Source: Mobula birostris | Lineage: Eukaryota | Length of the DNA: 64,000 bases | Direction: 5' to 3' | NCBI RefSeq assembly: GCF_030028105.1 | Contig: NC_092374.1 | Span: forward strand, 80,734,948 to 80,798,947 | Shown here: one piece after another, positions 6,594 through 64,000 of the stretch | How positions within the stretch are numbered: the stretch's first letter is position 1 | Layout: the number at the start of each line of letters is the position of its first letter | Notes under the pieces: generated by a model | Databases searched by the model: none | Told to the model about the DNA's origin: nothing | What the model saw: the letters and a program-made list of their open reading frames with translations, nothing else | Translations under genes and position numbers: made by a program

Positions 6594-6903
6594 GCAAGGC
6601 GTGCGGACAGAACTGAGGGAGCGACGTGGGTATATCAGTCTTCACCAATGGACTCAGAGACTCCACTTCAGCCATTGGGCCTTCAACTTCCCCACTGGAC
6701 TCTAGTTATCCCATCTTATTAAAGAGCCTGATGGTTGAGGGATAATAACTCTCTTTGGACTTGCTGGAGTGAATCCTGAGTCTCTAATACCTTCTACCTA
6801 ATGACAGCAGCAGAAACCATTTCTGTGATGGTAACAGAAAAACTAAGGTATGAGCTGGGCTTCGATGGAGACCACAGCTTTGCGCCATCTTGACCAATCT
6901 CTG

Positions 6904-8320
6904 CAACACTCACAACACTCTGGAGGAATTCAGTAGGTCGGGCAGCATCCGTGGAAACGATGAGTCGACGTTTCGGGCGGGAACCCTTCGTCAGGACTGT
7001 AGAGGGAAGGGACAGAGGCCCTATAAAGAAGGTGGGGGAGGGTGGGAAGGAGAAGGCTGGTAGGTTCCAGGTGAAAAACCAGTGAGGGGAAAGATAAAGG
7101 GGTGGGGGAGGGGAAGCAGGGAGGTGATAGGCAGGAAAGGTGAAGGAATAGGGGAAAACACAATGGGTAGTAGAAGGAGGCGGAACCATGAGGGAGGTGG
7201 TAGGCAGCTGGGGGAGAGGGCAGAGTGACATAGGGACAGGGGAAGGGAGGGGGAGGGAATTACCAGAAGCTGGGGAATTCTATGTTCATACCAAGGGGCT
7301 GGAGACTACTTAGATGGTATATGAGGTGTTGCTCTTCCAACCTGAGTTTAGCGTCATCATGGCAGTAGAGGAGTAGTAGACCCCACCACTAAGCACATCT
7401 TTCCCTCTCCACCCCTCTCCGCCTTCTGCAGGAATGGGTCCCTCTGCGACTCCCTGGTCCACACATCCCTCCCCACTGATCTCCCACCCGGCACTTATCC
7501 CTGTAAGCGCAAGTGCTACACCTGTCCCTACACCTCCTCTCTTGCCACCATTCAGGGCCCCAAACAGTACTTCCAGGTGAGGCAACACTTCACTTGTGAG
7601 TCTGTTGGGGTCACCTATTGCATCCGGTGATTCTGGTGCGGCCTCCTCTACATCGGTGAAACCTGACACAGATTGGGGACCGCTTCGTCGAGCACCTCCG
7701 CTCGTCCGCCAAAACAGACAGGATCTCCCGGTTGCCACCCAGTTCAACTGTGCTTCCCATTCCCATTCAGATATGTCCATACATGGCCTCCTCTACTGCC
7801 ATGATGAGGCTAAACTCAGGTTGGAGGAGCAACACCTCATATACCGTCTAGGTAGTCTCCAGCCCCTTGGTATGAACATTGAATTCTCCAACTTCCGGTA
7901 ATTCCCTCCCCCTCCCCCTCCCCCTCCCCCTCCCCCTCCCTCCCTTCCCCTATCCCTATGTCGCTCTGCCCCCTCCCCCAGCTGCCTATCACCTCCCTCA
8001 TGGTTCCGCCTCCTTCTACTACCCATTGTGTTTTCCCCATTCCTTCTTCACCTTTCCTGCCTATCACCTCTCTGCTTCCCCTCCCCGACCCCTTTATCTT
8101 TCCCCTTACTGGTTTTTCACCTGGAACCTATCAGCCTTCTCCTTCCCACCCTCCCCCCACCTTCTTTATAGGGCCTCTGCCCCTTCCCTCTACAGTCCTG
8201 ACGAAAGGTTCCGGCCCGAAACATCAACCCATCTTTTCGACGGATGCTGCCCGACCTGCTGAGTTCCTCCAGCGTGTTGTGAGTGTTGCTTTGACCCCAG
8301 CATCTGCAGAGTATTTTGTG
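6904..8320 (+). mobile_element. 5'-truncated Penelope-like element (GIY-YIG endonuclease 3' part) with inverted pseudo-LTR arm and 14-bp TSD
   Basis: Plus strand 7500-7900 gives CKCYTC, VTYCI...CGLLYIGET...EHLR...VATQFN...EEQHLIYRLGSLQPLGMNIEF across frameshifts. 6904-7373 is the reverse complement of ~7788-8289. TSD TTGACCAATCTCTG (6890-6903) / TTGACCAGTCTCTG (8321-8334). Confidence 0.9.
6963..6998 (-). ncRNA. Minimal type I hammerhead ribozyme motif (PLE-associated)
   Basis: Minus strand reads AGTC-CTGACGA-A-GGGTTCCCGCCC-GAAAC-GTC-GACT: core intact, stem I AGTC/GACT, palindromic ACGT stem III. Confidence 0.75.
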
Positions 8321-8653
8321 TTGACCAGTCTCTGATTGGCTATGCAGAATCTTATGGTGGGGGTGAGGGAGAGGGGAAATAAACAAGTTTGTCCAACTTC
8401 TCCTTGTGGTTAATACTCTCAAATATTCTGATAACCTCTTCTGCACCCTCTCCGAGGTGAAAGATCCCTTCGCCCTTGAGGTGTTAGAAACCCACCTGGG
8501 TTGGGTAACAAGACCTGAGGTCTGCTTACCACACCCTTTCTGCACCCCCCTTGACACAGAGAAGCTCCATGGAGAGTGTAGGTGTGCTCAGACTGTTTGG
8601 CTTTCCTTTCCCCTCTTCCTTCATCCATTCCCATTCTGAATTCTTCCGATTAG

Positions 8654-13617: not shown

Positions 13618-14360
13618 CCAGGTGAAGGGTCTCAACCCAAAACATCGTCTGTCCTGAAATATCAACTGTTTATTCATTTCCATAGATGCTGCCTGACCTG
13701 CTGAATTCCTCCAGCATTTTGTGTGTCTGTTGGAGTCATCTACTGTATCCAGTGCTCCCGGTGTGGCCTCCAGTATATCGGTGAGACTCAACGTAAATTG
13801 GGAGACTGCTTCATTGAGCACTTACACTCCGTCCATCATAAAAAGTGGGATCTCCCAGTGGCCACACATTTTAATTCCACTTTCCATTCTGACATGTCAA
13901 TTTCTACCCCCCCCTTCACCATTTCCCATTCCCTTTTCCCTCTCATCTTATCTCCTTGCCTGCCCATCACCTCCTTCTGGTGCTCCTCCCCCTTTTCTTT
14001 CATGGCCTTCTGTTCTCTCCTATTAGGGTGCTCACTATCTCTTTCACCAGTCAACTGGCCAGCTTTTTACTTCACCCCTCCCCATTTTACCTATTGCCTT
14101 GTGTTTCTTCCTCCCCTCCCCTCACTTTCTAACTCTGACTCCTCATATTTTTTTCTTTGGTCCTGATGAAGGGTCTCAGCCTGAAACGTCGACTGTTCTT
14201 TATTCCATAGATGCTGCCTGGCCTGCTGAGTTCCTCCAGCGTTTTGCATGTGTTGCTTGGATTTCCAGCATCTGCAGAATCTCTTGTGTTTATGACCGCC
14301 TGTCTATTTTCCTCCATGAATGCTGCCCGAGCCACTGAGTTCCTCCAGCATTGTGTGTTA
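13618..14360 (+). mobile_element. Cluster of Penelope-like element fragments (GIY-YIG remnant plus 3' ends)
   Basis: ORF 13723 reads SVGVIYCIQCSRCGLQYIGETQRKLGDCFIEHL (GIY-YIG). Repeated GATGCTGCC...GAGTTCCTCCAGC terminal motif. Confidence 0.85.
14158..14195 (+). ncRNA. Minimal hammerhead ribozyme motif, sense to CYB5D1 intron 2
   Basis: TGGTC-CTGATGA-AGGGTCTCAGCCT-GAAAC-GTC-GACTG: core intact, stem I with G-U wobbles. Confidence 0.65.
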
Positions 14361-19800: not shown

Positions 19801-19973
19801 ACTTTTACTTTTCTCCTTACTACTTTTTGCTTCTACCCTCACTTTACACCCCTCTGTCTCTCTGCACTGGTTCCCATCCCCCTGTTGTGAACTAACCTCC
19901 TCTCACCTAGCCTCTTTAATTTGATTCCCACCCCCCAACCATTCTAGTTTAAAGTCACCTCAGTAGCCCTCGC
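16824..19973 (-). mobile_element. Young 5'-truncated CR1 LINE, antisense in CYB5D1 intron 2
   Basis: Last ORF1 codons (ARATEVTLN*), full ORF2, 3'UTR ending CCTATTTTCTATG; possible TCAAAC TSD (16818-16823 / 19974-19979). Confidence 0.95.
16906..19842 (-). pseudogene. CR1 ORF2 (APE endonuclease plus reverse transcriptase), ~978 codons with a single internal stop
   Basis: Endonuclease motifs ITETWL, VYRPP, MGDFN, SDH; RT motifs PGPDG, NYRPVSL, LDFQKAFD, GVPQGSVLGP, FADD. ORFs 18847..19842 and 16906..18585 are in the same frame, separated only by TGA at 18849-18847 (HP*LT where HPWLT is expected); the 87 intervening codons are open. Confidence 0.93.
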
Positions 19974-20965
19974 TCAAACCGCTCAAAAACAGCAAAAAAT
20001 GAGAGTAACCAGAATCCAGGAGCACATGCAACAGGAAGCTCAAAGTTCATGCAACACTCCAACAACACAAGTCCTCAGCTTTGCCAATCAATCCAGGCAA
20101 GGTGGATCCCAAGGCTTCTGCACTTTCCTCCGACAGCAGCTAGCGAGAGGGAGAGGAAGACCGGGCAAACCTGAGCGGACGGCGTCGAACACCCGCCTGT
20201 CCTCCGCTCTCATCCTCATCGACTTCAGCCTTGCTTCACACCTCAATCGGAGGGAATCAATGGAGTCAATCATGGGCCCATGCCCTTGATGCCTCGATTG
20301 GAGGGAAGCAATCATGGACTTGAGCTCGTCTCCAGGGTTCCAGGCCTCCAAGCCACACACTCTGCACATCCATGGCCTGTACACACGGCCATGTGAAATG
20401 ATGGTACATCAATTGCTCTGCCCAACAGCATAAGAAATTGCACAGAGTTGTGGACACAGCCCAGTTCATCATGAAAATCAGCCTCCATTCCATAAGATTG
20501 AGGGGAGATTTGTTAGCGGTATGAGGGGTGAATGCAAGCAGGCTTTTCCACTGAGGTTGGGTGGGAGTACTACTAGAGGTCATGAGTTAAGGGTGAAAGG
20601 TGATCTCCCAATCTACCTTGCCATGGCCCATGGACTTTACTTGAATGTCTGCACTGCACTTTCTCTGTAACTGTAACTCTCTATTCTGCTTTCCTTTTGC
20701 TTCCTCATTTACTTGTAGATATTGAAATAATCTGTCTGGATGCCACGCAAACCAAAGCTTTGACTATATTTTGGTATATATGACAGAAATAAACCATTGC
20801 CAAAAATGTCAAAAGGTCCATGAGCCAACTGAGATACTACACAGTGTTGGGAGAGGTAGGTCTTCTTACTCAAGTTTAACTGTTGGTGCAAAGCAGTCAC
20901 AGTGGGGCAAATCCCAGAGACACCACCTTAGTCGAAGTGCAAATAATTACATATTGTAAATGAGA

Positions 20966-21190
20966 AACACGAGAAAGTCTGCAGGTGCTGGAAATCTTGA
21001 GCAACACAGACAAAATGCTGGAGGAACTCAGCAGGTCAGGCAGCATCTATGGAAGTCAATGTTTCAGGCCGACACCCTTCTGTAGGACATCCTGGTTAAG
21101 GGCCTCAACCCAAAATGGTGACTGTTTATTCTTTTCCATAGATTCTGCCTGACCTGCTAAGTTCCTCCAGCATTTTGTGTTTGTTACTTT
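20966..21190. mobile_element. Mini palindromic PLE-derived insertion (no coding sequence)
   Basis: Two inverted PLE terminal segments flanked by ATATTGTAAATGAGA (20951-20965) / ATATTATAAGTGAGA (21191-21205). Confidence 0.75.
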
Positions 21191-24109: not shown

Positions 24110-25140
24110 CTTGTAATTGCTGCCCCCTCTCCTTCACCATTCCCTATTCCCATTTTCCTCTCTCACCTTATCTCCTTACCTGCCCATCGCCTCTCCTTCC
24201 TTTTCTTCCATGACATCTGGCCCTCTCCCATCCGATTCCCCTTTCTCCAGCCCTTTACCTCCTTCACCAATCGACTTTGCAGCTCTTTACATCAACCCGC
24301 CCCCTCTCCCAGTTTCACCAATCACCTGCCACCTGTACTTATTCCTCCCCTCCCCCACCCTCTTACTCTGACTTTTCATCTGTTTTTTCCAGCCCTAATG
24401 AAGGGTCTGGGCCCAAAACATTAACTGTTTAATCTTTTCTATAGATACTGCATGGCCTGCTAAGTACCTCCAGCATTTTTGTGTGTATTTCTTTGATTTC
24501 CAGCATCTGCAGACCTTCTCCTGTTTGGAATATGAGATATTTCTCCTTCAGCTTGAGTTTGGCCTCTTCATGCAGTAGAGGAGGCCGTGGACAGACAAGT
24601 CAATGTGGGAATGGGAACTTGAAATGAAATGGATGGCCTTCAGAGATCCCAGCTGTTGTAGCAGACAGAGCGAAGGTGCTCGATGAAGCAGTGTCCCAAT
24701 CGATGTTTCACTGAGTCTCACTGATGTAGAGAAGCTGCACTGGCAGCATAGGATACGGTAAATGACCCCGACAGACTCACAAGCGAAGTTTTGCCTCACC
24801 TGGTCTGTGTGCGGCCCTGAATGGTGGTGAGGGAGGGGGTGTAAGGGCAAGTGAGTCAGCATTTATGACGGTTGTGGAGATAAGTGCCAGGAGAGAGATC
24901 TGTGGGGAGGGATGGGTGGACAAGGACACAGAGTGATTTCCACCAACCACCCACCCTCCTGCTCTCACCTATCACCTGCCAGCTTGTACTCCCCCCACAC
25001 CTCAACTTTCTTATTCTGACTTCTGCCCCCTTCCTTTCCAGTCCCGAGGAGGGGTCTCGACCTGAAACGTGGACAGTTTATTCTTCTCCATTGATGCTGA
25101 CTGACTTGCTGTGTTCCTCCAGCATTTTGTGGATGTTGAA
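24110..25140. mobile_element. Degenerate PLE fragments in both orientations
   Basis: Minus-strand QVRQNFACESVGVIYRILCCQC GIY-YIG remnant (24548-24862); plus-strand termini with decayed hammerhead motifs at ~24393 and ~25040. Confidence 0.75.
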
Positions 25141-27627
25141 CAGCATTTATGGCCCATAAAGATGCATCTTTGTGAACCACTGCAGTTAGTTTGGTGGACA
25201 ATGCCCTCAGTAATGTTGTGTCTGGGGTGGGGGGTGGTGGGGTTCCTGGATTTGAAACCAATAGCAATTCAGAAACCGGAAGGTCCTCTTCTCTCGCACA
25301 CCCTCCCGACTGGAAGCACACACATTGATGTATCCCAGTCTCAAACTCTCAGAGAGAACACTGTACACTCATGTCTCTCAGTCCACAGGCCAATGTGTAC
25401 TGTCTCTCAGTCTTTCACTCTTGTATCTCAACAATGTCTGGTGTCTCTCATTTCCTTTATCTCAAGGAGATACCCATACACAGACTGGGCTACTTCACAT
25501 ACTGTACATAATGACTCATATCAATGAAGGAGGCTATTTGGCCCGGTGTCTCCATGCTGGATTTTAGGGTAATCTCCCTTCCCATCTGTCAGCCCACAGC
25601 TCTGTAGAACATGTCTGTGTTCGTTATTGGAACTATCTTCCCTTCTGTACAAACTGGCAGTTTGTGAAACACACAATACTGGTGCACAATCAGCAGTGTG
25701 AACTGGAATTTATTATGAGACCAAATCTACCCTCTTCACCGCCCGCCCTTACTCATTTCCATGCTCCAGCTTCCTCTCTTATCAGATCCCACCATCTGCA
25801 GCCCTTTGTCACTTGGATCTATCTCTCATCTCCAACACTCTGTCATTATTTCCACTCTCCCCTCCTCCATCTATCCATCACCCCCTTCACCTGGATCCAC
25901 CCATCAGCTCCCAGCCTCTGTCACTATTCCCTCTCTCCCCTCCTCAACTGCTCATTGCCCCTGCTCACCTGGATCCACCCCTCGCCTGCTGGATCTTGCC
26001 TCACTGTATCTTTCAGTCCAGGGAGACCTCAACTCTGGGAAAACAGGTACAGGGTGTCCACCACATCTCTGCCTCTTGTTTTATTTTAAACTTCTATCAG
26101 TTCTCCCCTCAGTCTCCAGCACTACAGAGAAAAAAACACAAGTTCATCCAACCTGTCCTTATAGCAGATGCTCTCTTATCCAGACAGCATCCCGTCGAAC
26201 CTCTTGTGCATCCTTTCCAAACCTACACATCATTCCTGAAATGGGACCAGAATTGACCAGAATCCTGCAGATACAGCTTAACCAGAGCTTTAAAAAGCTG
26301 CAGTTGTATTTCACCTCAGCTCATCCTTCCCAATTCACATTAAAATGCATCACAGGACACAAAGCACATTCAAGATGAAAAACTAAACAAAAAAAAACTA
26401 GCAGAATCACATCCTGTCATCTTATGCTAAGATATATACATCTAACTTCCTGACTCTTGAACTCAGTGCCTTGCCTAATCAAGGCCAGCATGCCATATAC
26501 CTTATTAACCTCCTTATCGACCTGTGTAGCCACTTTCCCATCCCAGGAGCAATGGGTTTGAACCTTATATCCTTTTGTCCATCGGCACTAAGGGTTTTGC
26601 CATCAGCAGTGCACTGTTCCTTTACATTTGATCTACTTGCACGTGGCTGGGTTAATCTCCATCCACCATTTCTCTGCCTGCATTCAGATTATCTAACAAA
26701 GGATGTGTGATGTCAGAGAGGTTTCAGAAGTGGTTTATGAGAATGATTGGCCTCTGGACCTGTACTCACTGAAATTCAGAAGAATGAGGGTGGATCTCAT
26801 TGAAACCTATTAATGTTGAAAGGCCACGATGGTGGACGTGGAGAGGATATTTTCTTCGGTGGGAGAGTCCAGGACCAGACGGCATAGCCTATGAATAGAG
26901 AGACTCCATTTAGAATGGAGATGAGCAGGAATTTTTTTAGCCAGAGAGTGGTGAATCTGTGGAATTTGTTGCCACAGGTGGCTGTGGAGGCCAAGTCATT
27001 GGGTATATTTAAGGCAGAGGTTGACAGGTTCTTGATTTGTCAGGGCATGAAAGAATACAGGGAGAAGGCAAGAGATTGGGGCTGAGGGGGAAATGGATAA
27101 GGCATAATGAAATGGCTGAGCAGACTTGATGGCCAAATGGCTTAATTTTGCTCCTATATCTTATTGTCATATGGCATCCAAAACACTGCCTACATCTGAG
27201 AACTTAATAACCCACCCATCCATGTTTCCGTCCTAGTCCATTCCATATATTATCGCAAACAGCAGAGGTCTCACTACCAGCTTCTGAGAAATACCACTAG
27301 TCAAGGACACAGAAGGAAACAGTGACAACTGGGGAGATGGCTCAGAGAAAGTGAGAATTAAATCGGGTCAGGCCTTTCCAACTTAGTTGAAAGGAGAGGG
27401 ATGGTTAGAACTGTTGTTTAGTTTACAGAGGGCCAAGAAAGGATGGGACATTGGATTAAAGCCCATAGGAGGAGATAATTGGACTCAACAACTATCTGGA
27501 ACTGGAAGAATAGAAAAGGATTAATTGAAAGTTTTAGACACAAACTCTCTTTGGTGGAAAGTGGTGGAATCCAAAATGAGAATGTGATATCCAATGGTGT
27601 TGTTTTACTTCCCCGGTCACTGGCCAG

Positions 27628-30099: not shown

Positions 30100-30623
30100 A
30101 TGAGCCCCACCTGGCCAAAGTAACTGATTTTAAGGTGCCAGTAACCCTTCTCCTGTCAGTAGAAACAGTCCCTCCGAGCTTAGTAGCTAAGCCATGTGTG
30201 AAGGCCAGGAGCTGGACATGGTCGTAAGAAGCTATTTGAAGTGCTCACCATTTGGAGCATTTAATAGGTAGTGGGAGCTTGTCCCTGGTTATAACAACCT
30301 TCTTTCATAACAAGATCTATATCAACTGGGGAAGTTGTCCAAAGAAGGACAAGTTGAGTTTCACCTGGACCAAGTGTGAAGTGTTGTGCTTTGGTAACTC
30401 AAACCAGAGCAGTAAATGGCATGGCCCCAGGGAGAGTTGTAGAACAGAGGGAGCCAGGGGTGTAGGTGCCTGGTTCCCTGAAAATAGCGACACAGGTAGA
30501 CAGGGTGGTGAAGAAGGCATTTGGCTCACTTACCTTCATTGGTCAGGGTACTGAGTACAAAGGTTAGGACATCATATATTAAGCAGTAGTAAATCAAGGC
30601 AATTGGACTTGCTGTGTTGTCCA

Positions 30624-30663
30624 GAAGACATTTCGCCACTCATCTGAGACACTTCTTCAGTTC
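30624..30663 (-). ncRNA. Hammerhead-like motif of a second PLE family (degenerate)
   Basis: Minus strand reads GAA-CTGAAGA-AGTGTCTCAGATGAGTGGC-GAAAT-GTC-TTC, with stem I GAA/TTC. Confidence 0.5.
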
Positions 30664-33600
30664 CATGGTGGGTAGTTTTCCGGCTTATAAACTCTGAAAG
30701 TTGTTTAAAGGTATATCAATCATATGAGGGTTGTTAAGAATTGTAGGGATAATGAGAGGGTCACTTTCATGAACCTCCTTTGAACCCTCTCCAATGTCAG
30801 TAAATTCTTTCTTGGATAAGGGGCCCAAAACTGCTCACAATACTGCAAGTGAGAGCTCACCAATGCCTCAACATTACATCCTTGCCTTTATATTCTAGTC
30901 TGAACCCCTAGGTCAGAGTGTGACTGGGATAGGGAATTAATATTGTTCAAAGTACATTTATTATCAAACTCTGTACACTGTATACAACCTTGAGATTTGT
31001 CTTCCTGCAGGCAGCCACAAAATAAAGAAACATAATAGAACCCATTAAAAAAACCCACACAACAAAGAACGTCAAACACCCAATGTGTGAGAAAAGAACA
31101 AATCGTACAAATCATAAAAAAGTAAACAAATAACACATAAAACATGAACCGCAAAGTCCCCAAAAGTGAGTCCAAGTGAAGCCCGATCAGGGAGCCTGAT
31201 CACTTCAGTGCTGAAGTGCCTTGATCAAATTGTGCAAATAATAAAAAAAAAGAACACATGAAACATGAACTGCAGAGTCCCGAAAGTGAGTCCACAGTTG
31301 CAGAGTGCGTTCAGAGCTGTGGCCAGTGAAACCTGCCCAACAACTGCTCTTGAACATGGTGTTGTGGCATGATGATAGTGGCGAGGAGTGGGAGAGCGGT
31401 CAACTGCAGGCAGACAACGTTGAATCTCTCTCTCATCCTCAATAATTTTAATCTCCCTCAACACTTCAATGGTGTGGAGTAATGGAGCTGATAACGGCTT
31501 CGACTTCTGCCATCAGGCATTGATGCAGTGTACACCCCCAGTAATGGCCACACTTTTGAGAGTCTAGTTCACTGAACCCCCCCCTCCCCAGAGATCATAA
31601 AAATGCCAGATTGTTTAGTGGGCTGGAAAGTATATCTTTAGTAGGGAAATTACAGGCTGCTCTTGATCGCAGTTCAGAAGTATATCTAGAAGAAGAGTAT
31701 TTTGTGGTTTTGTGAGCTGCCTGCAACATGTGGCCATTGGTTGTTGGTGCCATCTTGCTAATTTATATGACAGGTAAGAGGAGCTCAGTGTGATCTCAGG
31801 GCCATTCCAAAAAGTAATCACCCAATACACATTTGACATCCCCAGTGTAGAGACCACACAGCAAACACTAAACACAGGACACTAGATTGGAAGAAGTGCA
31901 AGTGGATCATTGCTTCCTTTGGGATGGTGGGGAGGGAAGAGGTGAAAAGACAGGGGTTGTATCACCTGTAGTAGTGAGGGGAAGTGCGGAGAGGAGGAGG
32001 TGATTGATGGGAATGGAAGAGTGAACCAGGTGAAGGCAATGACCCATGTGAAATACTGAAAAGGGGAGGAGAGAGGAAGATGTATTTGGTGGCGGTATCT
32101 CTTTAAAGTTAGAGTAAATCACTGTGAATTTGAAAGGTGGTGTGATGGAAGTGGACGATCTAGGGAACTATTTTTGTTCTTTCCCAGAGTAGAGCAGGGG
32201 CACAGGAAAGAGATGAGATGCCCTCAAGGGCTTTTTTACAATGGTAGAGGTGACCCTGAGCTTCCGGTTGCCTGGTACTTCCACCCTATCTCTGAGCCAG
32301 TGTTTCCAGTTTTTACCCCAGCTATGGTTTTGTTTTTATTTTTTATTTATTTGTAACCCTTAAATCCATGTGAATTAATGAAGCAATTAGATGTAGTTAG
32401 CTGAATTAATTCAGCACAGGAATGTAGGCAGAAGAGTCTATTCCCTTGTGGTAACTGCTCTATATTCTAACCCCTGTGATGGCACCATTTTGGACTTGTA
32501 GGACATCAAGGCAACAGTTGGTTGTGTCCAGGATGGTATTGCGGGACTGGGCTTCTCTGCCATTCAGTAGAACTTAACATGCCCTCTCTCATGATTTAAA
32601 AATAAGATGGGGACGGGCCGGTGGTGGGGGGAGCCGCTGGGGATTCTTACCATTCAGAGAGACCCCGGTGTATTTGTATGTGAACTCCTGAAAGTTAAAG
32701 CACATTAGGAAAGCAAATGGTTTATCAAAGGAGAATTTCAGTGTGAGGTGGGAATCATTTGGCTCCAGTTGGTAAGTCCCTTGGGTTCAGGAAGTTCTGA
32801 GGAAAGGAAGACGGAAGGTCATTGCACACCAGACACCTCACAACCTTGACAGAGTGATGTTTAGCTCCAGTGGTGAGGGGAGTCTATTGTAACTAGAGAT
32901 CAGGCTCTGCTCATGGACTTGTGGCTCTGAACACATACGCTCGGAACACAAAAAACACGCACACACAGACATACACCATACACATGCAAAGTGCATGTAC
33001 GCACACTAACATAAGAAATATTCACGTTAAGCAGACACATAAAGAATGCACGAGTACAAAATGTATGCACACAGGCACCACAGAAAGCATGTGCATTCAC
33101 ATGTACTCACTCACACAAACCAGGCTGGGAGCCCTCCTCTGGTAAGGGCTCAACCATGGATGTTGCATCCTTTTTGCCTATGTTGCAGCACCTTCAACTG
33201 ATACACAAACTAGGGCAGTACAATATGGAGAGCAAGCTGTTGCCCATATTGCAGGCTCCCCATCGCCAAGCATCTGATGAATCCGAAGGAATGGCAGAGG
33301 CTGTTACAATTTGACACTACAGGCACCGTTGCCACTGTCGATGTGATGCGCAAGCCAGGAAGCAGGATATCGAGAGGAAGCTGCTGTCTGTGCAGCACGC
33401 TTCCCTTCTGCACACAGCTGATGGACCAAAGGAATGGCAGAGATCGACACTGACCAGGTAAGGACATCAAATTTCCTTTGATGAAGGTATCAGTGAACCG
33501 GACATGCTTACATTATAATCCATTGCTTTTAGCCATTGACACAATAGTTTTTAATCAGTTTTTAAAACCTTTTCATATTATTAACTTGAATTTAAAGTCA

Positions 33601-35339: not shown

Positions 35340-37440
35340 TTCCAGTTGTGTGGCATCAAAGAAGATGCGTGTGGGAGAATTTTAGTTACTGTGCGACAAC
35401 ATATGATATGTGCATGGGAGAATTTCAGTTACTGCGTGACAATAAATGATATATGCGTGGAAGAATTTCAGTTACTGCGCGGTGACAAATGATATGTGTA
35501 CGGGAGAATTTCAGTTACTGAGCGATGACAACGGATATATGCGTGGGAGAATTTCAGTTACTGCGCGGTGACAAATGATATGTGTACAGGAGAATTTCAG
35601 TTACTGTGCAACAACAAATGATATGTGCATGGGAGAATTTCAGTTCCTGTGCAGTGACAACAGATACGTGCATGGGAGAATTTAAATTACTGTACGATGA
35701 CAAATTATATGGGCGTAGGGGAATTTCAGATGCTGCGTGTCAACAAGTGATATGTGCACGGGAATATTCCAGTTACTGTGCAACAACAAATGATATGTGC
35801 ACGGGAGAAATTTCAGTTACTGTGTGACAAGAAATTATATGTACGTGGGAGAATTTCAGTTACTGTGCTGGGAAAATGGATATGTGCACAGGAGAATTTC
35901 AGTTACTGCGCAGTGACAAATGAAATGTGCACGGGAGAATTTCAGTTACTGAGTGACAACAAATAATATGTGCATGGGAGAATTTCAATTACTGCATGAT
36001 GACAAATGATATGTGCACAGGAGAATTTCAGTTACTGCACGACAGCAAATGATATGTACACGGGAGAATTTCAGTTACTGAGCGGTGACAACGGATATGT
36101 GCACAGGAGAATTTCAGTTACTGCGCGACAACAAGTGATATGTGCGTGGGAGAATTTCAGTTACTGAGCGGTGACAACGGATATGTGCACAGGAGAATTT
36201 CAGTTACTGCGCGACAACAAATGATATGTGTGTGGGAGAATTTCAGTTACTGCGCGGTGACAACGGATATGTGCGTGGGAGAATTTCAGTTACCGCATGA
36301 TAATAAATGATATGTGCGTGGGAGAATTTCAGTTACCGCGTGATAATAAATGATATGTGCGTGGGAGAATTTCAGTTACCGCGTGATAATAAATGATATG
36401 TGCGTGGGAGAATTTCAGTTACCGCGTGATAATAAATGATATGTGCGTGGGAGAATTTCAGTTACCGCGTGATAATAAATGATATGTGCGTGGGAGAATT
36501 TCAGTTACCGCGTGATAATAAATGATATGTGCGTGGGAGAATTTCAGTTACCGCGTGATAATACATGATATGTGCGTGGGAGAATTTCAGTTACCGCATG
36601 ACAATACATGATATCTGCGTGGGAGAATTTCAGTTACTGCATGACAACAAATGATATATGCGTGGGAGAATTTCAGTTACTGCATGACAATACATGATAT
36701 CTGCGTGGGAGAATTTCAGTTACTGCGTGGTGACAAATGATATGTGTACGGGAGAATTTCAGTTACTGCATGACAACAAATGATATGTGCGTGGGAGAAT
36801 TTCAGTTACTGCATGACAATACATGATATCTGCGTGGGAGAATTTCAGTTACTGCGTGGTGACAAATGATATGTGCGTGGGAGAATTTCAGTTACTGCAT
36901 GACAACAAATGATATGTGCGTGGGAGAATTTCAGTTACTGCATGACAACAAATGATATGTGCACGGGAGAATTTCAGTTACTGAGCGGTGACAACGGATA
37001 TGTGCGTGGGAGAATTTCAGTTACTGCATGACAATAAATGATATCTGCACGGGAGAATTTCAGTTACTGAGCGGTGACAACGGATATGTGCGTGGGAGAA
37101 TTTCAGTTACTGCGCGGTGACAAATGGTATGTGCACAAGAGAATTTTGGTTACTGCGCCACAATAAACGATATCTGCGTGGGAGAATTTCCCTTACTGCA
37201 TGACAATAAATGATATGTGCGTGGGAGAATTTCAGTTACTGTGCAACAACGAATGACATGTATATGGGAGAATTTCAGTTACTGCGCTGTGATATACGAT
37301 ATGTGTATGGGAGAATTTTAGTTACTGCGTGACAACGAATGATATGTGTATGGGAGAATTTCAGTTACTGTGCTGTGAGAAATGATACATGCATGGGAGA
37401 ATTTCAGTTACTGTGCTGTGAGAAATTATATAGGTGTGAG
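35340..37440 (+). repeat. 43-bp tandem array, ~49 copies; resumes for ~1.5 units at 42263-42335
   Basis: Unit ~TGATATGTGCGTGGGAGAATTTCAGTTACTGCATGACAACAAA, with a nearly constant GGGAGAATTTCAGTTAC core. Confidence 0.97.
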
Positions 37441-37674
37441 CAGGGCCGGATTAAGCTGGTGTGGGGCCTGTAGCATATGTTATAAAGGGACCCTAAATTT
37501 TAAAAAATGCACATAAGTATGAAAACATAAATTATTTACTTGCATAGTAAAGTAATTCAATTTTTTTCATTTGCTATACAGCCAGATAATATGACAAATG
37601 TCTGACACTTCAGTAATAGTATTACTTACATGCAGGTTTCAATTTCAAATGTCAAAAGTAACAAAACTACAATT

Positions 37675-40439
37675 TCAAAGTTAGATTTTCTAGATTTAGC
37701 ATGAGCAAATTTGTTGATGATACTGGAAATGTCTATTTCATGCAGAAGTTCATGTTCAATGCTCATTCGAGTGAGATTGTTCAATCTGTTTTGACCCATG
37801 GTGCTCCTTAGTTCATTTTTAATCCTTTTCAGTTTTGAAAATGAGCGTTCCCACTGCAGTTGGTAACTATGAGTGACAAATAGATGCGCAAGGCATTTTT
37901 TACATTTGAAAACATGACTCCAAAAGATTGTCAGTTATCAAATGATACAACTGTAACTCTACAAGGTCTTGTTTGGCGCCAATATGAGAAGCAAGATCAG
38001 TTTTCGACAATTCAGTAAACTGCACAAATTCTTCATTAAGACTTGCTTCCAGATCTTCTGGATATGATTTAATAAGATTTGATGACCTTTTTACGATCTC
38101 TTCAGGTGTAAAAGACTGTAACTGATGAAGGAATCCAAAAACACCATTCACCTTTAGATAACCTTTCTGCCTTTTTGACAGGGCAGAAAGTAAGCTGTCA
38201 ATAATGGCAGAAATGTTCGGCTTTTAAACTTCTGAGAAGGCATTTGAGATTCAACAAGAGGATCAAGAGTGCTGGAACCACTGAACTCATCATACGTGTG
38301 ATTTTGCTTGTGTTTTCTTTGAGTTCGCTGTTGATAATCTTCACACTTAGTCAGATCCTTGGCTTTTTGCTGAATGTCTGAAAAAGTAGACCGCATAGCT
38401 TGAATATATCCATGCAAGGATTCATAGAGTGCACAAGCTGTGTTCAAGTCTTGGCCAGAAGATTGCAAAGAAGCACTGGTCATTTGAAAATGCTGTAATA
38501 CTTGATCCCACAATATGACCATTATTCCTGTTTCCAACTTCATCATGGTTGAAAGTAGTCCACAAGCCTGTTGTCAACACTTTGCCTTTTCTGACCGTTA
38601 TTATTTGAAATGTCATCCAAGACTTGTTTTATTGCAGAAAAGCTGTGTAAAAGTGCTTTTGTTGCATCTGCACGAGCTGACCACCTGGTATCTGACATTC
38701 TTTTCACAATGGGCAAATGAGCACCACCATCAGATAATGCAGCAGAAAGGAGATCCCACCAATAAGTAGAAGCAGAAAAAAATATGTACAGGCTTTCTAC
38801 AAATTGAAAGAAAATTAATGCTTCTTGACAACATTCAGCAGCACATTTTTGGACCAAATTTAGTGAATGTGCAAATGATGATGATGACGATGATGACGTT
38901 GACTCAGACCTGAGAGTCCAGCGTCGGGCATTTTCATGCCTTACAAGGTGCAGTTCGAAAGGCTGTATGGGGCGCCACTCCTTGCACAGACATTTCACAG
39001 TATTATTTTACAAGGCCGAGTTGCGAGCTCAACGTCAACCTGGTGCGGATGGAGAGCACATATGGGGGCGGTCTGTCACTGGATCAAACTCGGGAACCTC
39101 TGTTCTCGAGCCCGGTGCTGATCCCACTGCACCACCAGTCGAATGTGCAAAACATTGAATATAATCTGCAAACTCATTCAGCTCTTTAATTCATGCTTGT
39201 AAGCCACTATACTTGCCACTCATGTTGCTGGCATTGTCGTAACTTTGACCACGGCAGTCTTTTATATCAATGTCATTTTCCTTTAAAAAGTCAAGTAAAC
39301 CTTGAGTGAGCTGTTCAGCACTATGACCCTCCATACCCAAAAACTTCACAAATCTTTCAACTGGTCCAGACGGCAAAACATAGCGCACAGTCAAAGTCAA
39401 CTGATCCACATTAGATATATCTGGAGTAGAATCCAATGAAGCAGAATAATACTTGTATTTCTTCACTTCACCGATAATGTGATCCAGTATGCTGGATCCA
39501 ATCAAATTGATGAATTCCTTACATAGGTATGATTTATGTCCCCTTCCTTGGTTTGCATGAGCATTTGTATGCTCTGCCAGAAAAGGGTCAAACTTGGCCA
39601 GTAATTCTAACAACCCCAAGTAATTTCCATTATGAGGAGAGCCAACAGTTTCATTGCTACCATGAAATGAAAGGCCTCTTTCCGCTAAAAACTTTACAAC
39701 TTCAATTATTCGCTCTAGAAGTGTGCGCCAATACTTTTGTTCAGTCTCCATTTCTTTCACAAGGTGGGAAGCAACACGCTTAGCTTTGTTTTTGCACATC
39801 GATGGTGAAATTAAAGCTTGTCTATGTGAGGAACTTTCTTCATGTTGACGTAATAGATTGCTTGCATTTTCCAGTCATCAAACCCCTCTTCACTAGACTT
39901 TGATGAACATCCTGAAGTCATAAACTTGTGTGGGAAACAGAATATGCTTCCTTTGCTTTCTGAATAGCATAACCAATTTCCTGCATGCTGCTTGTTTGTA
40001 GGTTTATGAACATATGTAAAATAAGACTTCTGACAGTGCCAAGGTTTCTTTTCATTGTCATACAATCGCATGGATGAAGAGAAGTCACTCTCAGTGTGTT
40101 GACATTCATCACTTCCCTTGGTTATCCAATATTCATGATCACAATCATCTAGATTGTTTGGCCATTCACCAATGTCATTAGAGTACTTGTTCTTTCACAT
40201 TGAATGGATGCTGGCTGTTGCTGTATCATGCCTCCTGCCGCACTAGTACTAGTTGTTCCTCTGTTTCCAGCTTCAGCCGTTATAGCACCATCACCATCTC
40301 CATGAACATCAAAATATTCTGTCGACTTGCGTGTTTTTGATATCACAAGTTGGTTTCTTATTTCTTTTTCTTCCTTCGCTTTACGTTTTGCACTTCCAGA
40401 AGCATAATGATGTCCAATATCTCTGGCTCTATTGCTCAT
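37675..40439 (-). pseudogene. hAT transposase pseudogene (ZMYM1/DUF4371-like DDE domain plus C-terminal dimerisation domain)
   Basis: MSNRARD...SGSAKRK; NGNYLGLLELLAKFDP; LDSTPDISNVDQL; RGQSYDNASNMSG; CFAHSLNL (split by a SINE); DTRWSAR; ERSFSKLKRIKNELRSTMGQNRLNNL. Multiple frameshifts; 3' end approximate. Confidence 0.92.
38876..39140 (-). mobile_element. Full-length tRNA-derived SINE with (TCA)n tail and 11-bp TSD
   Basis: A-box TGGTGCAGTGG, B-box GAGTTTGATCC; TSD GAATGTGCAAA at 38865-38875 and 39141-39151. Confidence 0.9.
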
Positions 40440-40540
40440 TGCTATCTGCAATGGAAAAAAAATGAAATATGCATTTAAAAACAAATAGTTTATGTTACAA
40501 AAGCTATGTAGCGGTATCAACAAAGACTAGTGAACAGTAA

Positions 40541-41101
40541 ACACAAAATAATCTGCAGATGCTGGGGTCAAAGCAACACTCACAACACACTGGAGGAACT
40601 CAGCAGGTCGGGCAGCATCCGTGGAAACGATCAGTCGATGTTTTGGGCCGGAACCCTTCGTCAGGACTGTAGGGGCAAGGATACCATCTAGGTAGTGTCC
40701 AGCCCCTTGGTATGAACATAGAATTCTCCAACTTCCGGTAATTCCCTCCCCCTCCCTTCCCCTATCCCTATGTCACTCTGCCCCCTCCCCCAGCTGCCGA
40801 CCACCTCCCTCATGGTTCCACCTCCTTCTACTACCCATTGTGTTTTCCCATATTTTTTCTTCACCTTTCCGGCCTATCACCTCCCTGCTTCCCCTCCCCG
40901 ACCCCTTTATCTTTCCCCTTACTGGTTTTTCACCTGGAACCTACCAGCCTTCTCCTTCCCACCCTCCCCCCACCTTCTTTATAGGGCCTCTGCCCCTTCC
41001 CTCTACAGTCCTGACGAAGGGTTCCCGCCCGAAACGTCGACTGATCGTTTCCACGGATGCTGCCCAACCTGCTGAGTTCCTCCAGTGTGTTGTGAGTGTT
41101 G
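40541..41101 (+). mobile_element. Short PLE insertion with inverted arm and perfect 14-bp TSD
   Basis: TSD CTAGTGAACAGTAA at 40527-40540 and 41102-41115; highly similar to 6904-8320. Confidence 0.92.
41006..41043 (+). ncRNA. Minimal type I hammerhead ribozyme motif (best-preserved copy)
   Basis: CAGTC (stem I)-CTGACGA-A-GGG TTCCCG CCC (stem II)-GAAAC-GTC^-GACTG (stem I'); predicted cleavage after 41038. Confidence 0.8.
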
Positions 41102-41606
41102 CTAGTGAACAGTAACAAATTTATGTGACTGTTGTGACTATGAGCGTGTGTGGATCACATACACTCAACAACCAACTAGGAATAGTGTTCTGAAAATTAT
41201 CTGTTTAGTTGCTCATTGAAAATCATTTCATTTGGGAAATACAGGTTGAAACTTACAGTCTAATCCAATCTTGTGTGTTCCTGAGCTGGTTCAGACTACC
41301 TAAAATCAGGAAACAAATGAGGAATCATGAACTGGGTCACATCAGACTGTTGAATTGCACATCCCCTGTCGCAGGCTGACTGCGGGGGCTGCTGGAGGGT
41401 GTGGCGTAACAGCGCATGCTGCAGTGGCTTGGCAGCATGGGAGATAGCACAAAGGTCACCACGACACAGTAAGGAGCCAACACACGCCTGCACAGACATA
41501 CTGTACCATGCACCATGCAGCATGCAGCATGCAGCTCCCCCGACATGAAAACAACAGCATTGCCATTCCGTCGTCGTTGTGGCGTGGATGAAATCACAGA
41601 GCATTA

Positions 41607-51460: not shown

Positions 51461-51780
51461 CCCCTTGTATATTAAAACATTTTTTGGGGGTAAGTCCCCC
51501 TCAACTTTTTTTTTAAAAAAACCCTTGGAGTGTCAAAAAACAGAGAGGGGGGAGGAAAAAAGAAAGCTGAACCACAGGAAAAAGAACAACAACAAAAAGT
51601 GTGAAGGATAACTTTTTTTTTCTTGCAAGAGTAGCTTCTTTTCTTTTAGCAGCTGAGTGGGTTTTTTTGTTGTGCAGGGAGTTTTTCCCCCGCCTGTGTG
51701 CATTTTTTTCTTTTTTTTAAGAGAAAGAAGGGGGAGATATTAGGTAGATTTTTCTATGGTTGTTGGGTTCCCGAGAGGAC

Positions 51781-51865
51781 ATGGCATCCCCACTGAGGCA
51801 AGAAGAAGAGCAGGAGGAGGAGGAGGAGATGGACGAAGGCGGCCCGCTTTTCCCGCCAGCGGCAG
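51781..51865 (+). CDS. CHD3: CHD3 (Mi-2alpha, NuRD remodeller), coding exon 1
   Basis: GACATGG Kozak context; encodes MASPLRQEEEQEEEEEMDEGGPLFPPAA, like the MASPLRDEEEE... N-terminus of the long human isoform. CAG|GTAGCT donor, phase 1. Synteny with NAA38/CYB5D1 supports the call. Confidence 0.85.
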
Positions 51866-52800
51866 GTAGCTCGCTGCGCGCGCCGCCCGAGAACCCCGGA
51901 CCGGTGCCGCTTTCCCTCTCCGCTGCCGCGCGCTCCCCTTCCCCTTCCCCTTCCTTCCCCTTCCCGCCCCGATGCAGTAAGAGGGACGACCGCATTATTT
52001 TTTTTTGCATCCCCCCCCCACCACCTTTTTCCCTTTCCCCTCAATCTTACAGAGACGCGCGCCCTTTTCTTTTAACGAGTGTCTTCAGCCGCCCAGGGGA
52101 GGGGGGTCGCGTCAGACCGCCGCCGGGCTCGAGCCGACCCCGCGTTTGAAATTGAAAAGCCGCCACGCGCGCCGCTCCAACCGCCGCGACCTGTCACTCA
52201 AAGCGGAGGAGAAGGGCGCCGGGTCAGGGAGCGGGCCCGGGGCGCTCTCCTCTCCACCCAACTGCTGTTTCTGTACATAATATATCTATATTGTGTGTGT
52301 ATATATATGTATGTTCTGAGGCAACTTTACATTCCCACCATCCGTTGGAATAAATTATCTCCCTTTTGCTCATTATTTCCCCTACCCCTGTTCATTTTTC
52401 TTATGGCGGACCGTGTTTCACCCCCCCCCTCCAAATCGCCGGGCAGGCCGAAGGCCCGGTAGTTCGAATCCTTTCCCTATGTGTGGGGAGGTGGTGGTGG
52501 AATTTTCCAGCCCCCCCCCCATCTCTTTCTCTCCCCCCGGGCCGAGGCCGCAACGCGGCCGTCAACGCGCAGACGCGGCGGCGCGTAGGTGCCGGCACTT
52601 AACCCCCTCGTGGCTGCGGTGTGGGCTGCTGGCCGTTTTTTGCCCGTACTCCCCGTCAGGGTGGGATGTCCGTAGCTATTCCTCTAGCTCCGACCCCCCG
52701 GCGCAGGGGGGCGGGGCGGTGGTTGTCCAGCCCCTCACCCCGTTATGAGGGGTGGGGAAATTCTTGTTCCACCCCCAACGGGGTGCGGTTCTTCCACCCC
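51830..52800. promoter_or_regulatory. CpG island over CHD3 exon 1 and intron 1
   Basis: High GC and CpG density compared with CpG-depleted flanks. Confidence 0.8.
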
Positions 52801-54574: not shown

Positions 54575-55340
54575 GAGAGTGCTGTTTAGATACAGTGAAG
54601 CTCCCTGTATATTGTGCAATCACACACTTCCAGGGCAGTGTTAGATACAGGGTGAAGTTCCCTTGACATTATTCTAGCGCACACTCCCAGGACAGAGACA
54701 GCACAGGTTAGATACAGAGTGAAACTCCCTCTGTACTCTCCCGTCGCACACTCCCAGGACAGAGACAGCACAGGTTAGATACAGAGTGAAACTCCCTCTG
54801 TACTCTCCCGTCGCACACTTCCAGGACAGAGACAGCACAGGTTAGATACAGAGTGAAACTCCCTCTGTACTCTCCCATCGTACACTCCCAGGACAGAGAC
54901 AGCACAGGTTAGATACAGAGTGAAACTCCCTCTGTACCTCGCCCATCGCACACTCCCAGGACAGAGACAGCACAGGTTAGGTACAGAGTGAAACTCCCTC
55001 TGTACTCTCCCATCGCACACTCCCAGGACAGAGACAGCACAGGTTAGATACAGAGTGAAACTCCCTCTGTACCTCGCCCATCGCACACTCCCAGGACAGA
55101 GACAGCACAGGTTAGGTACAGAGTGAAACTCCCTCTGTACCTCGCCCATCGCACACTCCCAGGACAGAGACAGCTCCCTCTACATTGTTCCAGCAGACAC
55201 TCCCAGGATTTGGACAATATCAGTTAGATACAGAGTGAATCTCCGTCTGCATTATTTCACATATTCTCAGGACCAGCTCAGGTTTAATACAGGATAATGC
55301 TCTCTACATTGTCCCAGCAGACAATCATAGAGCAGGTACA
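54575..55340 (+). repeat. 67-bp tandem array in CHD3 intron 1 (~7.5 homogeneous copies at 54680-55175 plus degenerate flanking units)
   Basis: Unit CACACTCCCAGGACAGAGACAGCACAGGTTAGATACAGAGTGAAACTCCCTCTGTACTCTCCCGTCG. Confidence 0.95.
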
Positions 55341-55523
55341 AAATCTGAGATTTTTTTTATGTGTGATTGCAGTCTTTGCAATCTATCACATTTGTTAATA
55401 CTACAGCAGATGCATTTTCTAGAGACCGCTGTCAAACATTAATGCCTTGTCGTTTTGTTGCCATCAGAGACAAACAAAAATTTGTGCATCTTTATGGGAA
55501 CCCAATGATCTGTTTGTTTCCAG

Positions 55524-55654
55524 TTGCAGAGGAGAATGTGGAGGAAGTCATTGAAGGACACTCTGAAGGTGACGGTGTCAAAAAGAGACGAAAGAAACTG
55601 CTGAAGAAACAAAAAGAAAATAAGCCAGCTAAAACCAAAAAGCGGAAGAGACTG
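55524..55654 (+). CDS. CHD3: CHD3 coding exon 2
   Basis: TTTCCAG| acceptor (alternative TTGCAG| at 55530); encodes (V)AEENVEEVIEGHSEGDGVKKRRKKLLKKQKENKPAKTKKRKRL, matching the CHD3 GVKKRKR..KKQKENKP..KRK basic region; |GTGAGT donor. Later exons were not found in the window. Confidence 0.9.
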
Positions 55655-55724
55655 GTGAGTGACACTTTGCTTTTTTTGACCAGTATGCTGAAGGAACAAA
55701 TCTCTTACTTAGATAAGGAAGTTT

Positions 55725-56393
55725 GGTTGGGTTGAGTTGTTCTCCAAACTTGGCAATTTACTTGCAGACATTTTGTCACCATGTGAGGAGACATTGTCAG
55801 TGGCTTTTGATTGTGGTGTGTCCTCTAAATGCTTAACCTACAAAATCCAACGCAGGGACCGCAGCAAATATTACATCAGCCAAACTGGGAGAAAACTATC
55901 CACAAGGATCTATGAACATCAACTGGCTGTAAAGTGGAATGACCAACTCTCCCGAGACTCTACCCATGAAGATAGAGAGGGGCACAAATTTGATTGGGCA
56001 TCAGTGAAAATTATGGTGCAAGTGAACACATGGCATGCAAGAGTTTATAGAAGTGTTTTTCTGTGAACAAGTGTGTAAATAGACTCGTATAGCTCGATCC
56101 TATTTATGAACCGATGCAGGCAAAATTCCAGACCATGGTGCATGAAGTTCGCCCTACAGCCAATCAAGTGATGAGATTTCCTCCCTACATTGCAATTGAG
56201 TTTCTGAAATGATGTCCAATCAGCTGATTGAAAAGTATATAAAGGCCAAGCATTCGGAGGACACACCATAATCAATGGCATACTGATAATGTCTGTGTGG
56301 TGACAAAATGTTTACAAGAAAATTGCCAGCATTGGAGAACAACTTAACCCAACCATCAGCTACCGGAACTACACATCTATCTAATTATTTCCA
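55725..56393 (+). mobile_element. PLE of a different family, with inverted terminal arms
   Basis: GIY-YIG remnant YKIQ...YYISQTGRKLSTRIYEH...HKFDW. 55725-55830 is inverted relative to 56255-56355. Degenerate TSD ATAAGGAAGTTT / ATAGGGAAGTCT. Confidence 0.8.
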
Positions 56394-56785: not shown

Positions 56786-58516
56786 CACCCTATCCTCGTT
56801 ATATGCGGAGGATACGTTCCTCAAAGTCGACACATAATGTGAATAATTATTTAGATGGGGAAAATAAGGATGTGTTCTTGAGGGCTTCCTAAATATGTTT
56901 TATCTGTAATTTATTCACATTTTCATACCAATACGACACAAAAGCAGTACCACAAGGCAACATTCGTATTATATTTCATCAATTTAAGGTAATATTCAAT
57001 GTGATAAATCATAGAAAGTTAACATACTAGGGTGTACGGTACTCGCCAACAGTGGCAGGTATGTTTGCTTCGGGAGATGGAGTGGTTGTTGTGGTGTCGG
57101 GCAGCTTTAGACGGATGAGGTGGATGGTTGTGTGTCGTCAGGGTCATCAAGGACAGCAAGGGGTGAGGGAAGACTCTCAAAACTCTCAGTACTGCCTGCA
57201 GCAGATGATGACACTGGTTTGAAGAAAGTGGTGAGGATTGTATGCTTGGCAGCATTTTGTCTTTCAGCATAAATTTGCTTGTAGGGAGGAAGGCTTGACT
57301 GCAGGGAACTACTGAAATGCTGACTCCATTCTAAACTTGGGTCCATGTCCATCGCCATTTGTGCCAAGTGTTCCGCGGCCTTAAAAAAATTCTGCCAGTT
57401 GCTTCAGAGTGGAAGACCTGACCTCTTTCCAGGATTCATCAATGTTGTTGATGGCATGTCTGATGTTGAAGGATTTCCACCATTCCCTCACCGTTGTAAA
57501 CTCCCGGGATTTTCAAAATCCTCTGTTGCTTGCAGCATCTGAGAAACAGTTCGCCATTAAAAAAAGATACGCCTTGAATGTGGATATCACACCTTGGTCA
57601 AGTGGTTGAATTGGCGATGTTGTGTTAGGCGGCAGGAAGCACACTGTTATGTTAGGATGAATGCTGTCGAAATGTCTAGGATGGGCTGGCGCATTGTCAA
57701 GCAACAAAAGAACTTTGAAGGCAAGATTCTGTTCCGGGCAGTAGCGTTCAGCCTCAACGACAAAATGATTAGCAAACCAGTCTTCAAAGATTTGACCAGT
57801 GACCCATGCTTTCTTGTTGGCTGCCCAGTGGACAGGAAGCATATTCTTACTCAAACCCTTAAGAGCACAGGGGTTTAGTGAATGGTAAACTAAGAGAGGC
57901 TTCACCTTACAGTCTCCTTTGGCATTGGAACACATACGCAAAGTCAATCTATCCTCTGCTGCCTTGAAACCTGATGCAGTTTTTTCATCCTTATGTAAGT
58001 GCGTTTCGGTATATGCTTCCAAAAAAGCCCAATCTCGTCTGCATTAAACACCTGCTTTGGTGTGATGCTTAAATCAGTTATCATAGCCCACAACTGCACA
58101 GGGTAGCATCCCAGAGCTGTGTTACCTTCACCTGACGCCGCCCTGTTTATAATTTCCAACTTTTTTTCCCAAGTGTTAAAGTGGTTCTTTGCCACTTGGC
58201 TGATGGCCCAGAACTTGACATTGGACACTTAGGAGGCATAGTTAAATATTTCAAGCACAAAATCACTGCACTGTAGGTAAAAACACAAAAGTTTAAGAGC
58301 ACAAGATCGCACATCCACACGTTGCCAAAACCAGTGCGAGACTGGCGGGGGAGTGAGACTGTGAGGCGTGCACACGTGACTTGTATTGGCGGGAAAGCAG
58401 TGCTCCTCGCATAACTGTGAGTTTTGGACGCATATGATGAGAAGTTGGTAGAAATAGGTTCCTCGCATAACTGTGAATCCGCATCGTCTAAAGACGCATA
58501 TAATGAGGATAGGGTG
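56786..58516 (-). mobile_element. Tigger/pogo-like DNA transposon, internally deleted, in CHD3 intron 2
   Basis: TIRs CACCCTATCCTCGTTATATGCG / CGCATATAATGAGGATAGGGTG|TA; DDE_1 motifs QVFNADEIGLFWK, KVLLLLDNAPAHP, FLPPNTTSPIQPLDQGVISTFKAY. Confidence 0.92.
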
Positions 58517-63345: not shown

Positions 63346-64000
63346 TAGGTACTGCCATCACCCAGGTCATGTCTTGCTCTAATTGTTACTATGAGGTAGG
63401 AGGTACAGGAGCCTGAAGGCACAGACTCAACAATTTAGGAGCAGCTTCTTCCCCTTTGCCATCTGATTCTGAATGGATGTTGAACCCATGAATGCTACCT
63501 CACTACCTTATTTCTGTTCTTGCATTACATTTTAATGTATAAAAATAGAAATAAGGTAGTGAGGTGTGTAGTCGAACTACTACTCCCAGTAAAGAGCAGG
63601 GAAAACATAACAAATTGGGACCTGGTTTAGGATCTTGCAGGATCGTTGACCTGACATAATTAATATGTAGTCAAATATTATATTAGAAAAACTCGTGGCA
63701 CTGAGACCATTCAATCTTCTGTGTCCATGGTGGACCTTTGCACGGCCAGTTATACTGATGGTACACTCACTAAAATACTCACAGAAAGTGACTGACAGCT
63801 GCAGAAAAGAACCTTGTAGAAGTTACCCTGCTGCAGCTTTGCAGATCAATTCACTGCAGGTCTCTTGCTATGATTTGACAGTGTCTTTCTGCAGCTGGCT
63901 GGTGGTGATTATAAAAGGCAACAATTTTGGTGACCTTTCCAAAAGGTGAATGACTTGAAATGATGTTCAGGGCTGTTAAACACACTCGGGGTTGGTGGGG

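Follow-up and report, generated by a model that had tools for sequence, protein, structure and literature searches.

An intact minimal hammerhead motif in a truncated fold-back Penelope-like element insertion of Mobula birostris

The 64,000-nucleotide stretch of Mobula birostris DNA analysed here (the window) contains, at 41006-41043, a short sequence that reads as a hammerhead ribozyme, and the locus raises the question of whether this likeness is genuine, which element carries the motif, and whether it would cut RNA. The motif lies past the endonuclease stop codon of a Penelope-like element (PLE) insertion that has an inverted arm, a one-sided tail and a 14-bp target-site duplication, and it is under selection across families. 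We consider it probable that the motif is a passenger in this truncated fold-back insertion, likely of the Neptune clade, and that, in a tandem donor still active, two copies would likely pair into a dimer and, with help from a protein, cut weakly after C17.

The motif and the insertion that carries it

An earlier note on this DNA had described a 5-bp stem I, a full core with an extra A after A9, and an ACGU palindrome without a loop; on re-reading, its sequence and coordinates proved exact, and all of these parts were found. Stem I is formed by 41006-41010 with 41039-41043 (five Watson-Crick pairs), the CUGANGA core occupies 41011-41017, and the extra A (41018) is unpaired between positions 9 and 10.1. 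Stem II, which joins 41019-41022 to 41027-41030 by three G-C pairs and one U-G and is capped by a 4-nt loop, includes the G10.1-C11.1 pair (G41019-C41030). G12-A14 correspond to 41031-41033 and C17 to 41038; helix III is absent, and the palindromic positions 15.2-16.2 read ACGU (41034-41037). The core is complete, with C3-A9, G12-A15.1, U16.1 and H17 all present, and the cut is predicted between 41038 and 41039. The extra nucleotide after A9, which had been described as tolerated in some hammerheads, is indeed there but is no oddity, since it belongs to the class consensus given in PMC4209133.

Could the motif resemble a hammerhead by chance? An Rfam scan gave seven matches at E up to 5, none to a hammerhead family, and the folding z-score was only -2.4, both of which would suit a chance origin. 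Against it, a descriptor of the minimal hammerhead (min-HHR) matched the window three times (41011+, 14163+ and 6994-) and did not match once in 200 dinucleotide shuffles of the window searched on both strands. A covariance model (R1), constructed from 15 hammerheads of non-window relatives only, placed 41006-41043 at the top of its 17 matches, with exact coordinates, 42.5 bits and a rough E of 7e-9, and related elements carry the motif at the same position and on the same strand, with covariation. On the strength of the shuffles, the position and strand in related loci, and the independent model, we rejected chance resemblance, to which we assign a negligible probability. A perfect core together with both stems occurs in the window at 41006-41043 only.

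The motif sits in a 5'-truncated fold-back PLE insertion (40541-41103; Table 1). The right arm (40682-41103) opens within the last codons of a GIY-YIG endonuclease, and the hammerhead starts 264 nt past the endonuclease stop codon, on the sense strand, in the pseudo-LTR (pLTR). This position, together with the class features, supports the earlier assignment to the minimal type I hammerheads of PLEs. In the left arm the hammerhead (40632-40669) is damaged, with G12 and 16.2 both changed to A, and a 32-nt tail (40541-40572) is found on that arm only, the right arm being without one. A sister insertion has the same anatomy: its tail-less inverted arm (6903-7376) contains a hammerhead at 6962-6999 (-) with a 4-bp stem I, its tail-bearing arm (7379-8322) contains a linker and endonuclease, both broken (7379-7901), and a hammerhead that is damaged (8193-8230), and its 14-bp duplication (6890-6903 and 8321-8334) has one mismatch. 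The inverted 5'-truncated arm and the one-sided 32-nt tail are thus seen in two insertions; in PLEs generally, it is usual for an arm to be inverted and truncated and for a tail of 30-40 bp to stand at just one end (PMC8557442). Both arms of the 40541-41103 insertion read through the predicted cut site, and their RNA template was therefore uncut there. The neighbouring sequence, 37626-40526 (-), is a broken hAT-like transposase (DUF4371, E 1e-13), and the PLE inserted just upstream of its apparent first coding part.

Table 1. Coordinates of the hammerheads, insertion parts and related features in the window
Feature	Position	Strand	Basis
Minimal type I hammerhead, intact	41006..41043	+	Sequence parse, descriptor, covariance model, consensus of PMC4209133
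Last 19 codons and TAA stop of PLE GIY-YIG endonuclease, 5'-truncated right arm	40682..40741	+	tblastn, 84% over 19 aa to protein P0002; translation
Pyrimidine-rich 3' untranslated part of pseudo-LTR, 264 nt	40742..41005	+	Alignment with two sister arms
Conserved 3' segment; tail-less end of right arm, 65 nt past predicted cut	41044..41103	+	Arm alignment
Short inverted left arm with damaged hammerhead and tail	40541..40680	-	Arm alignment
14-bp target-site duplication, left copy	40527..40540	.	Sequence comparison
14-bp target-site duplication, right copy; first 2 bases common to element end	41102..41115	.	Sequence comparison
Sister insertion, same anatomy	6890..8334	.	Arm alignment, tblastn, translation
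CX3CxxC Zn-finger-like linker, sister copy	7502..7525	+	Translation; definition in PMC8557442
Older-subfamily hammerhead, core intact, G10.1-U11.1 wobble	14158..14195	+	Descriptor, model R1

The pyrimidine-rich untranslated region invites a different reading, in which it is an intron and the ribozyme is switched through the change that splicing makes to stem I; Penelope of Drosophila virilis offers the precedent, its intron ending at helix I (PMC4209133; PMC2377424). At the stop codon (40738) stands GTAA, which resembles a splice donor, and a polypyrimidine tract leads to an acceptor-like CAG that ends at 41008, inside stem I. This CAG is, however, already accounted for by stem I pairing, neither splice signal is common to the related loci, and no such joint was found among the 11 listed, although contigs cannot prove its absence. 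With no supporting joint and unconserved signals, we set the intron reading aside as quite improbable.

Window copies, related elements and family identity

A profile seeded with nine window copies and searched with nhmmer over the 64-kb window gave 24 matches, 23 of them at E <=0.002, and none in the reversed window, so that "at least a dozen" copies, as the earlier note had it, was an undercount. Among the 14 window copies aligned over the core, all invariant core bases are kept in 4 and at least one is lost in 10, with G12 changed to A at a CpG in 6. At non-CpG positions of the core, 12 of 126 cells depart from the majority (9.5%), compared with 57 of 608 in the 3' segment (9.4%) and 20 of 56 in loop II. 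The core is thus as variable as the 3' segment, which is what neutral decay after insertion predicts; the expectation that the core should be more conserved than its flank fails among the window copies and holds across families. The older hammerhead at 14158-14195 lies downstream of an endonuclease remnant (13720-13902). The window holds 3' fragments only, with neither a full-length element nor a PLE reverse transcriptase (RT) found in it, and no pile-up of 5' truncations at the cut site was seen among 23 aligned copies.

Other sequences of interest were noted in the window. Older inverted pairs of the same terminus occur at 20965-21190 and 24348-25148, the latter with decayed endonuclease sequence inside it (24516-24924, -). 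Another minimal hammerhead, distinct from the first and with a longer stem II (30622-30665, -; model match E 7e-4) resembles fish Xena/Poseidon examples in Fig. S3 of PMC4209133. A GIY-YIG-like remnant of another PLE-like family lies at 55713-56066 (+), and a relaxed scan downstream of it gave no convincing hammerhead. Elsewhere there are a near-intact LINE ORF2 with AP endonuclease and RT (16906-19902, -; one stop between frames of 351 and 646 codons), a DDE_1 transposase remnant (57513-58043, -; E 2e-33), and tandem arrays at 35371-37413 (43-bp units), 5688-6592 (32 bp) and 54678-55174 (67 bp). Two likely host-gene first exons with donor-like ends, without Pfam identification, lie in a CpG island at 51780-51870 and about 55520-55660 (+), and 63498-63564 forms a near-perfect hairpin, possibly a small inverted-repeat element, whose weak miRNA-family matches fall below the gathering score.

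For the comparison across related elements, metagenome contigs were scanned and the best 80 of 493 related stretches were retained; 54 of the 80, those with longer matches, were tabulated, and 39 of these, some of them duplicates, reach the protein end with at least 150 nt downstream. The motif was found on the sense strand in 14 of the 39 loci, 95-151 nt past the protein match, and on the antisense strand in none; a strict match was absent in the other 25, several of which hold decayed versions. An alignment of 17 hammerheads, of which three come from the window, shows no variation in the core, the extra A or G10.1; all 17 hold the three inner pairs of stem I, with 8-11 double changes per pair. 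These counts are inflated, since membership of the set depended on a descriptor that demands stems and several of the loci are closely related. When selection over the 80 loci was based on the core only, both stems were present in 20 of 34 distinct matches; in the flank permutation control, stem I gave a mean of 4.6 and a maximum of 13, with kinship uncorrected. Core and stems are under selection across related families. Inverted arms also occur in three of the related loci (L006, L015 and L063). For a structure conserved in the 3' segment and the tail there was no support, with compensatory change in 0 of 17 predicted pairs. A pattern scan with the ray 3' motif gave no match in metagenome and viral contigs, and protein alignment against viral contigs gave no relative; a looser pattern matched four viral loci, which we discarded as unrelated chance matches.

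The proteins point to an elasmobranch family. A peptide from the sister copy matched 14 of 34 candidate proteins, the best five being from Hypanus sabinus and Mobula hypostoma (70-80%), and the sister-copy protein and endonuclease remnants of the window are 77-89% identical to P0002. A search with P0002 returned 301 proteins, many with RT; among the 120 matches listed, relatives from sharks, a skate and rays share about 56-79% identity and those from corals, molluscs and echinoderms about 44-50%. P0002 has RT motifs and a GIY-YIG match below the Pfam cut-off, and its relatives carry RT (PF00078) and GIY-YIG; the broken endonuclease pieces of the window were not recognized by Pfam. The linker cysteines are nearly invariant among relatives, and the endonuclease CCHH motif is kept in relatives and at 13720-13902 and damaged in the sister copy. 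A CX2-5CxxC linker between RT and endonuclease marks Neptune and Nematis (PMC8557442), and the hammerhead of L015, whose ORF is 40% identical to P0002, is identical to one from Acropora digitifera listed as Neptune (PMC4209133, Fig. S3 and Table S1). Based on the linker, which alone also fits Nematis, and on the L015 tie, the family likely belongs to the Neptune clade. The earlier attribution to a chondrichthyan PLE family thus appears sound, likely as an elasmobranch one with its closest named proteins in H. sabinus and M. hypostoma, and the claim of high abundance is borne out by 18,028 contigs with family sequence in a presumed-DNA run (X1; contigs matched to 460 bases).

Two presumed-RNA runs contain family sequence in 2,319 and 3,225 contigs, which show neither ends nor strand, and a raw-read run (X21) contained one family read. 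In the presumed-RNA runs depth rises more over the 3' segment, summed contig depth being no measure of expression. Variants inside the motif in run X1 fall in loop II, C11.1, position 17 and distal stem I among 40 of the 73 variant rows, a coverage from which invariance of the core in that run cannot be claimed. Two of 128 proteins, one of them from Stegostoma, end in read-through peptides consistent with a translated hammerhead, an indirect sign.

Folding, predicted cleavage and proposed insertion mechanism

The best predicted fold of the motif in isolation pairs G5-G8 with C15.2-C17. Nearest-neighbour energies, which ignore Mg2+, tertiary contacts and protein, were -14.4 kcal/mol for this fold versus -10.4 kcal/mol for the open form in the monomer, and -32.0 kcal/mol for the misfolded versus -19.7 kcal/mol for the active dimer. 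PLE minimal hammerheads as a class are reported to be dimer-dependent and of low activity (PMC4209133). In PAc from Anolis carolinensis, a Poseidon element and the one PLE tested together with its protein (Frangieh et al. 2024, PMC11167929), cleavage occurs only with protein present and transposition proceeds from uncut RNA. In view of these PAc results and of the arms that read through the cut site, the earlier note's inference that the family processes its RNA by self-cleavage is overstated.

From PMC4209133 and PMC11167929 we infer the following steps. The active donor would be a tandem pLTR-ORF-pLTR whose transcript holds two motifs; in the related locus L011, the motif is present in both direct repeats, 3,066 nt apart. 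Each motif would lend the other a strand of stem I, and their ACGU palindromes would pair to form stem III; the RT-endonuclease protein would chaperone the hammerhead fold, as PAc suggests, and the dimer would cut after C17 at a low rate. Cleavage would trim element units or set them apart and, if the motif overlaps the start of the ORF, as it does in PAc, take away the start codon. In three related loci (L011:948-980, L030:319-370 and L035:323-355), the 5' hammerhead overlaps the start of an open frame of 989-1139 codons, and a cut there would therefore likely remove the start codon; in L011, the A of the first ATG is hammerhead position 17, so the cut would split it. Reverse transcription would begin 65 or about 97 nt past the cut site on RNA uncut there, which would explain why both arms read through the site. 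It would do so at two points separated by the tail, and use of both nicked strands as primers would produce the fold-back form.

The same folding results could mean that the motif is selected mainly as a structural or regulatory RNA, such as a protein-binding site or a translation control element, and rarely or never cleaves in vivo. The inactive fold is favoured in both monomer and dimer, and the inserted arms read through the cut site. In PAc, ribozyme mutants transpose normally in vitro and RNA-seq gave no reads ending at the cut site (PMC11167929); functions other than cleavage are allowed for in PMC4209133, and Naiad PLEs proliferate without canonical hammerheads (PMC8557442). Against this reading stands the retention of all catalytic bases, including G8, G12 and H at 17, across families with diverged stems, and the PAc C3G and G8C mutants lose cleavage while the double mutant is partially rescued (PMC11167929). 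We regard this alternative as unlikely, and favour weak, protein-assisted cleavage in the donor.

For the 41006-41043 copy itself, we expect no such activity: having neither an ORF nor a partner on its own strand, it is most probably inert, and the motif survives here because the insertion is young and its CpGs are undecayed. The contrary case, in which transcripts of this copy actively cleave in trans together with other copies and thereby affect host or transposon RNA nearby, could appeal to its being the sole perfect copy in the window and to the family's presence in the two presumed-RNA runs. But the RNA nature of these runs is only a guess, their contigs being without ends or strand, and no contig piece listed spans the stretch. 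The arm has several private substitutions elsewhere, as neutral decay expects, the retention of the core in 4 of 14 copies is compatible with youth, and no same-strand partner lies nearby. Activity of this copy is therefore highly improbable in our judgement.

A more elaborate version of the insertion step can be proposed. Nicks 14 nt apart in the two target strands would each prime reverse transcription on one uncut tandem RNA, from separate start sites in separate repeat copies, and the core-sequestering fold would hold the hammerhead off until a later step. The lead for this two-primer scheme, which we offer as doubtful, is a C in loop II (41026 and the matching base in 6962-6999) common to both tail-less arms. 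At the same position both tail-bearing arms have G, an observation from two insertions only, and in run X1 about 99% of the summed depth is G or A, C being rare. A search of the untranslated region of the tail-less arms for another shared derived change found none.

Comparison with known systems

The closest counterparts are the minimal hammerheads of metazoan PLE pseudo-LTRs (Cervera and De la Pena 2014, PMC4209133). The motif shares with them the CUGANGAH core, the extra base after position 9, G10.1-C11.1, the loop-less palindrome, the short helix I and the pLTR location, as well as the occurrence mostly as single motifs in truncated copies. Opposite-strand pairs lie 100-700 bp apart in that class and about 340 bp apart here. 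The stem sequences differ, and helix II has 4 bp here versus 7-8 bp in Schistosoma. Since the consensus published in that work already includes both the extra nucleotide after A9 and the palindrome without a loop, the system is not new.

With the Neptune clade (Craig et al. 2021, PMC8557442) the family shares the C-terminal GIY-YIG, the CX2-5CxxC linker, the inverted truncated arm and the 30-40 bp one-end tail; the comparison differs in that the window has 3' fragments only, and Nematis has the same linker. PAc likewise has its hammerhead upstream of two reverse-transcription starts separated by a tail, cuts and extends both target strands, which fits fold-back insertion, and inserts from uncut RNA; unlike the present family, it belongs to the Poseidon clade, and its starts lie in an AC-rich stem-loop 111-118 nt into the ORF, versus GT-rich ends here (PMC11167929). 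Non-LTR retrozymes (PMC7229834; bioRxiv 10.64898/2026.07.22.740005) are also type I hammerheads in animal repeats and are related to PLE pLTRs. Retrozymes, however, are head-to-tail arrays of small non-coding units, whereas the copies here are dispersed, inverted and attached to endonuclease-coding sequence, and we rejected this identity, no hammerhead-bearing tandem array having been found in the window.

Among the species examined in Table S1 and Fig. S3 of PMC4209133 there is no cartilaginous fish, and one chondrichthyan genome was scanned with minimal hammerhead models in bioRxiv 10.64898/2026.07.22.740005. We found no paper showing the ribozyme of this elasmobranch family; Lunse et al. 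2017 and Arkhipova et al. 2017, which may include sharks, were outside the search. Minimal hammerheads of PLEs have been recorded in most metazoan phyla, fishes, coelacanth and frog among them, and the finding alone adds little. It widens the documented range by a very abundant elasmobranch Neptune-like family, whose high copy number and clean target duplications make it useful for studying the role of the ribozyme in vivo. Should the two-primer scheme hold genome-wide, the steps of PLE integration could be traced through tens of thousands of ray copies. Taken together, these comparisons place the motif, by every feature tested, in the PLE minimal hammerhead class.
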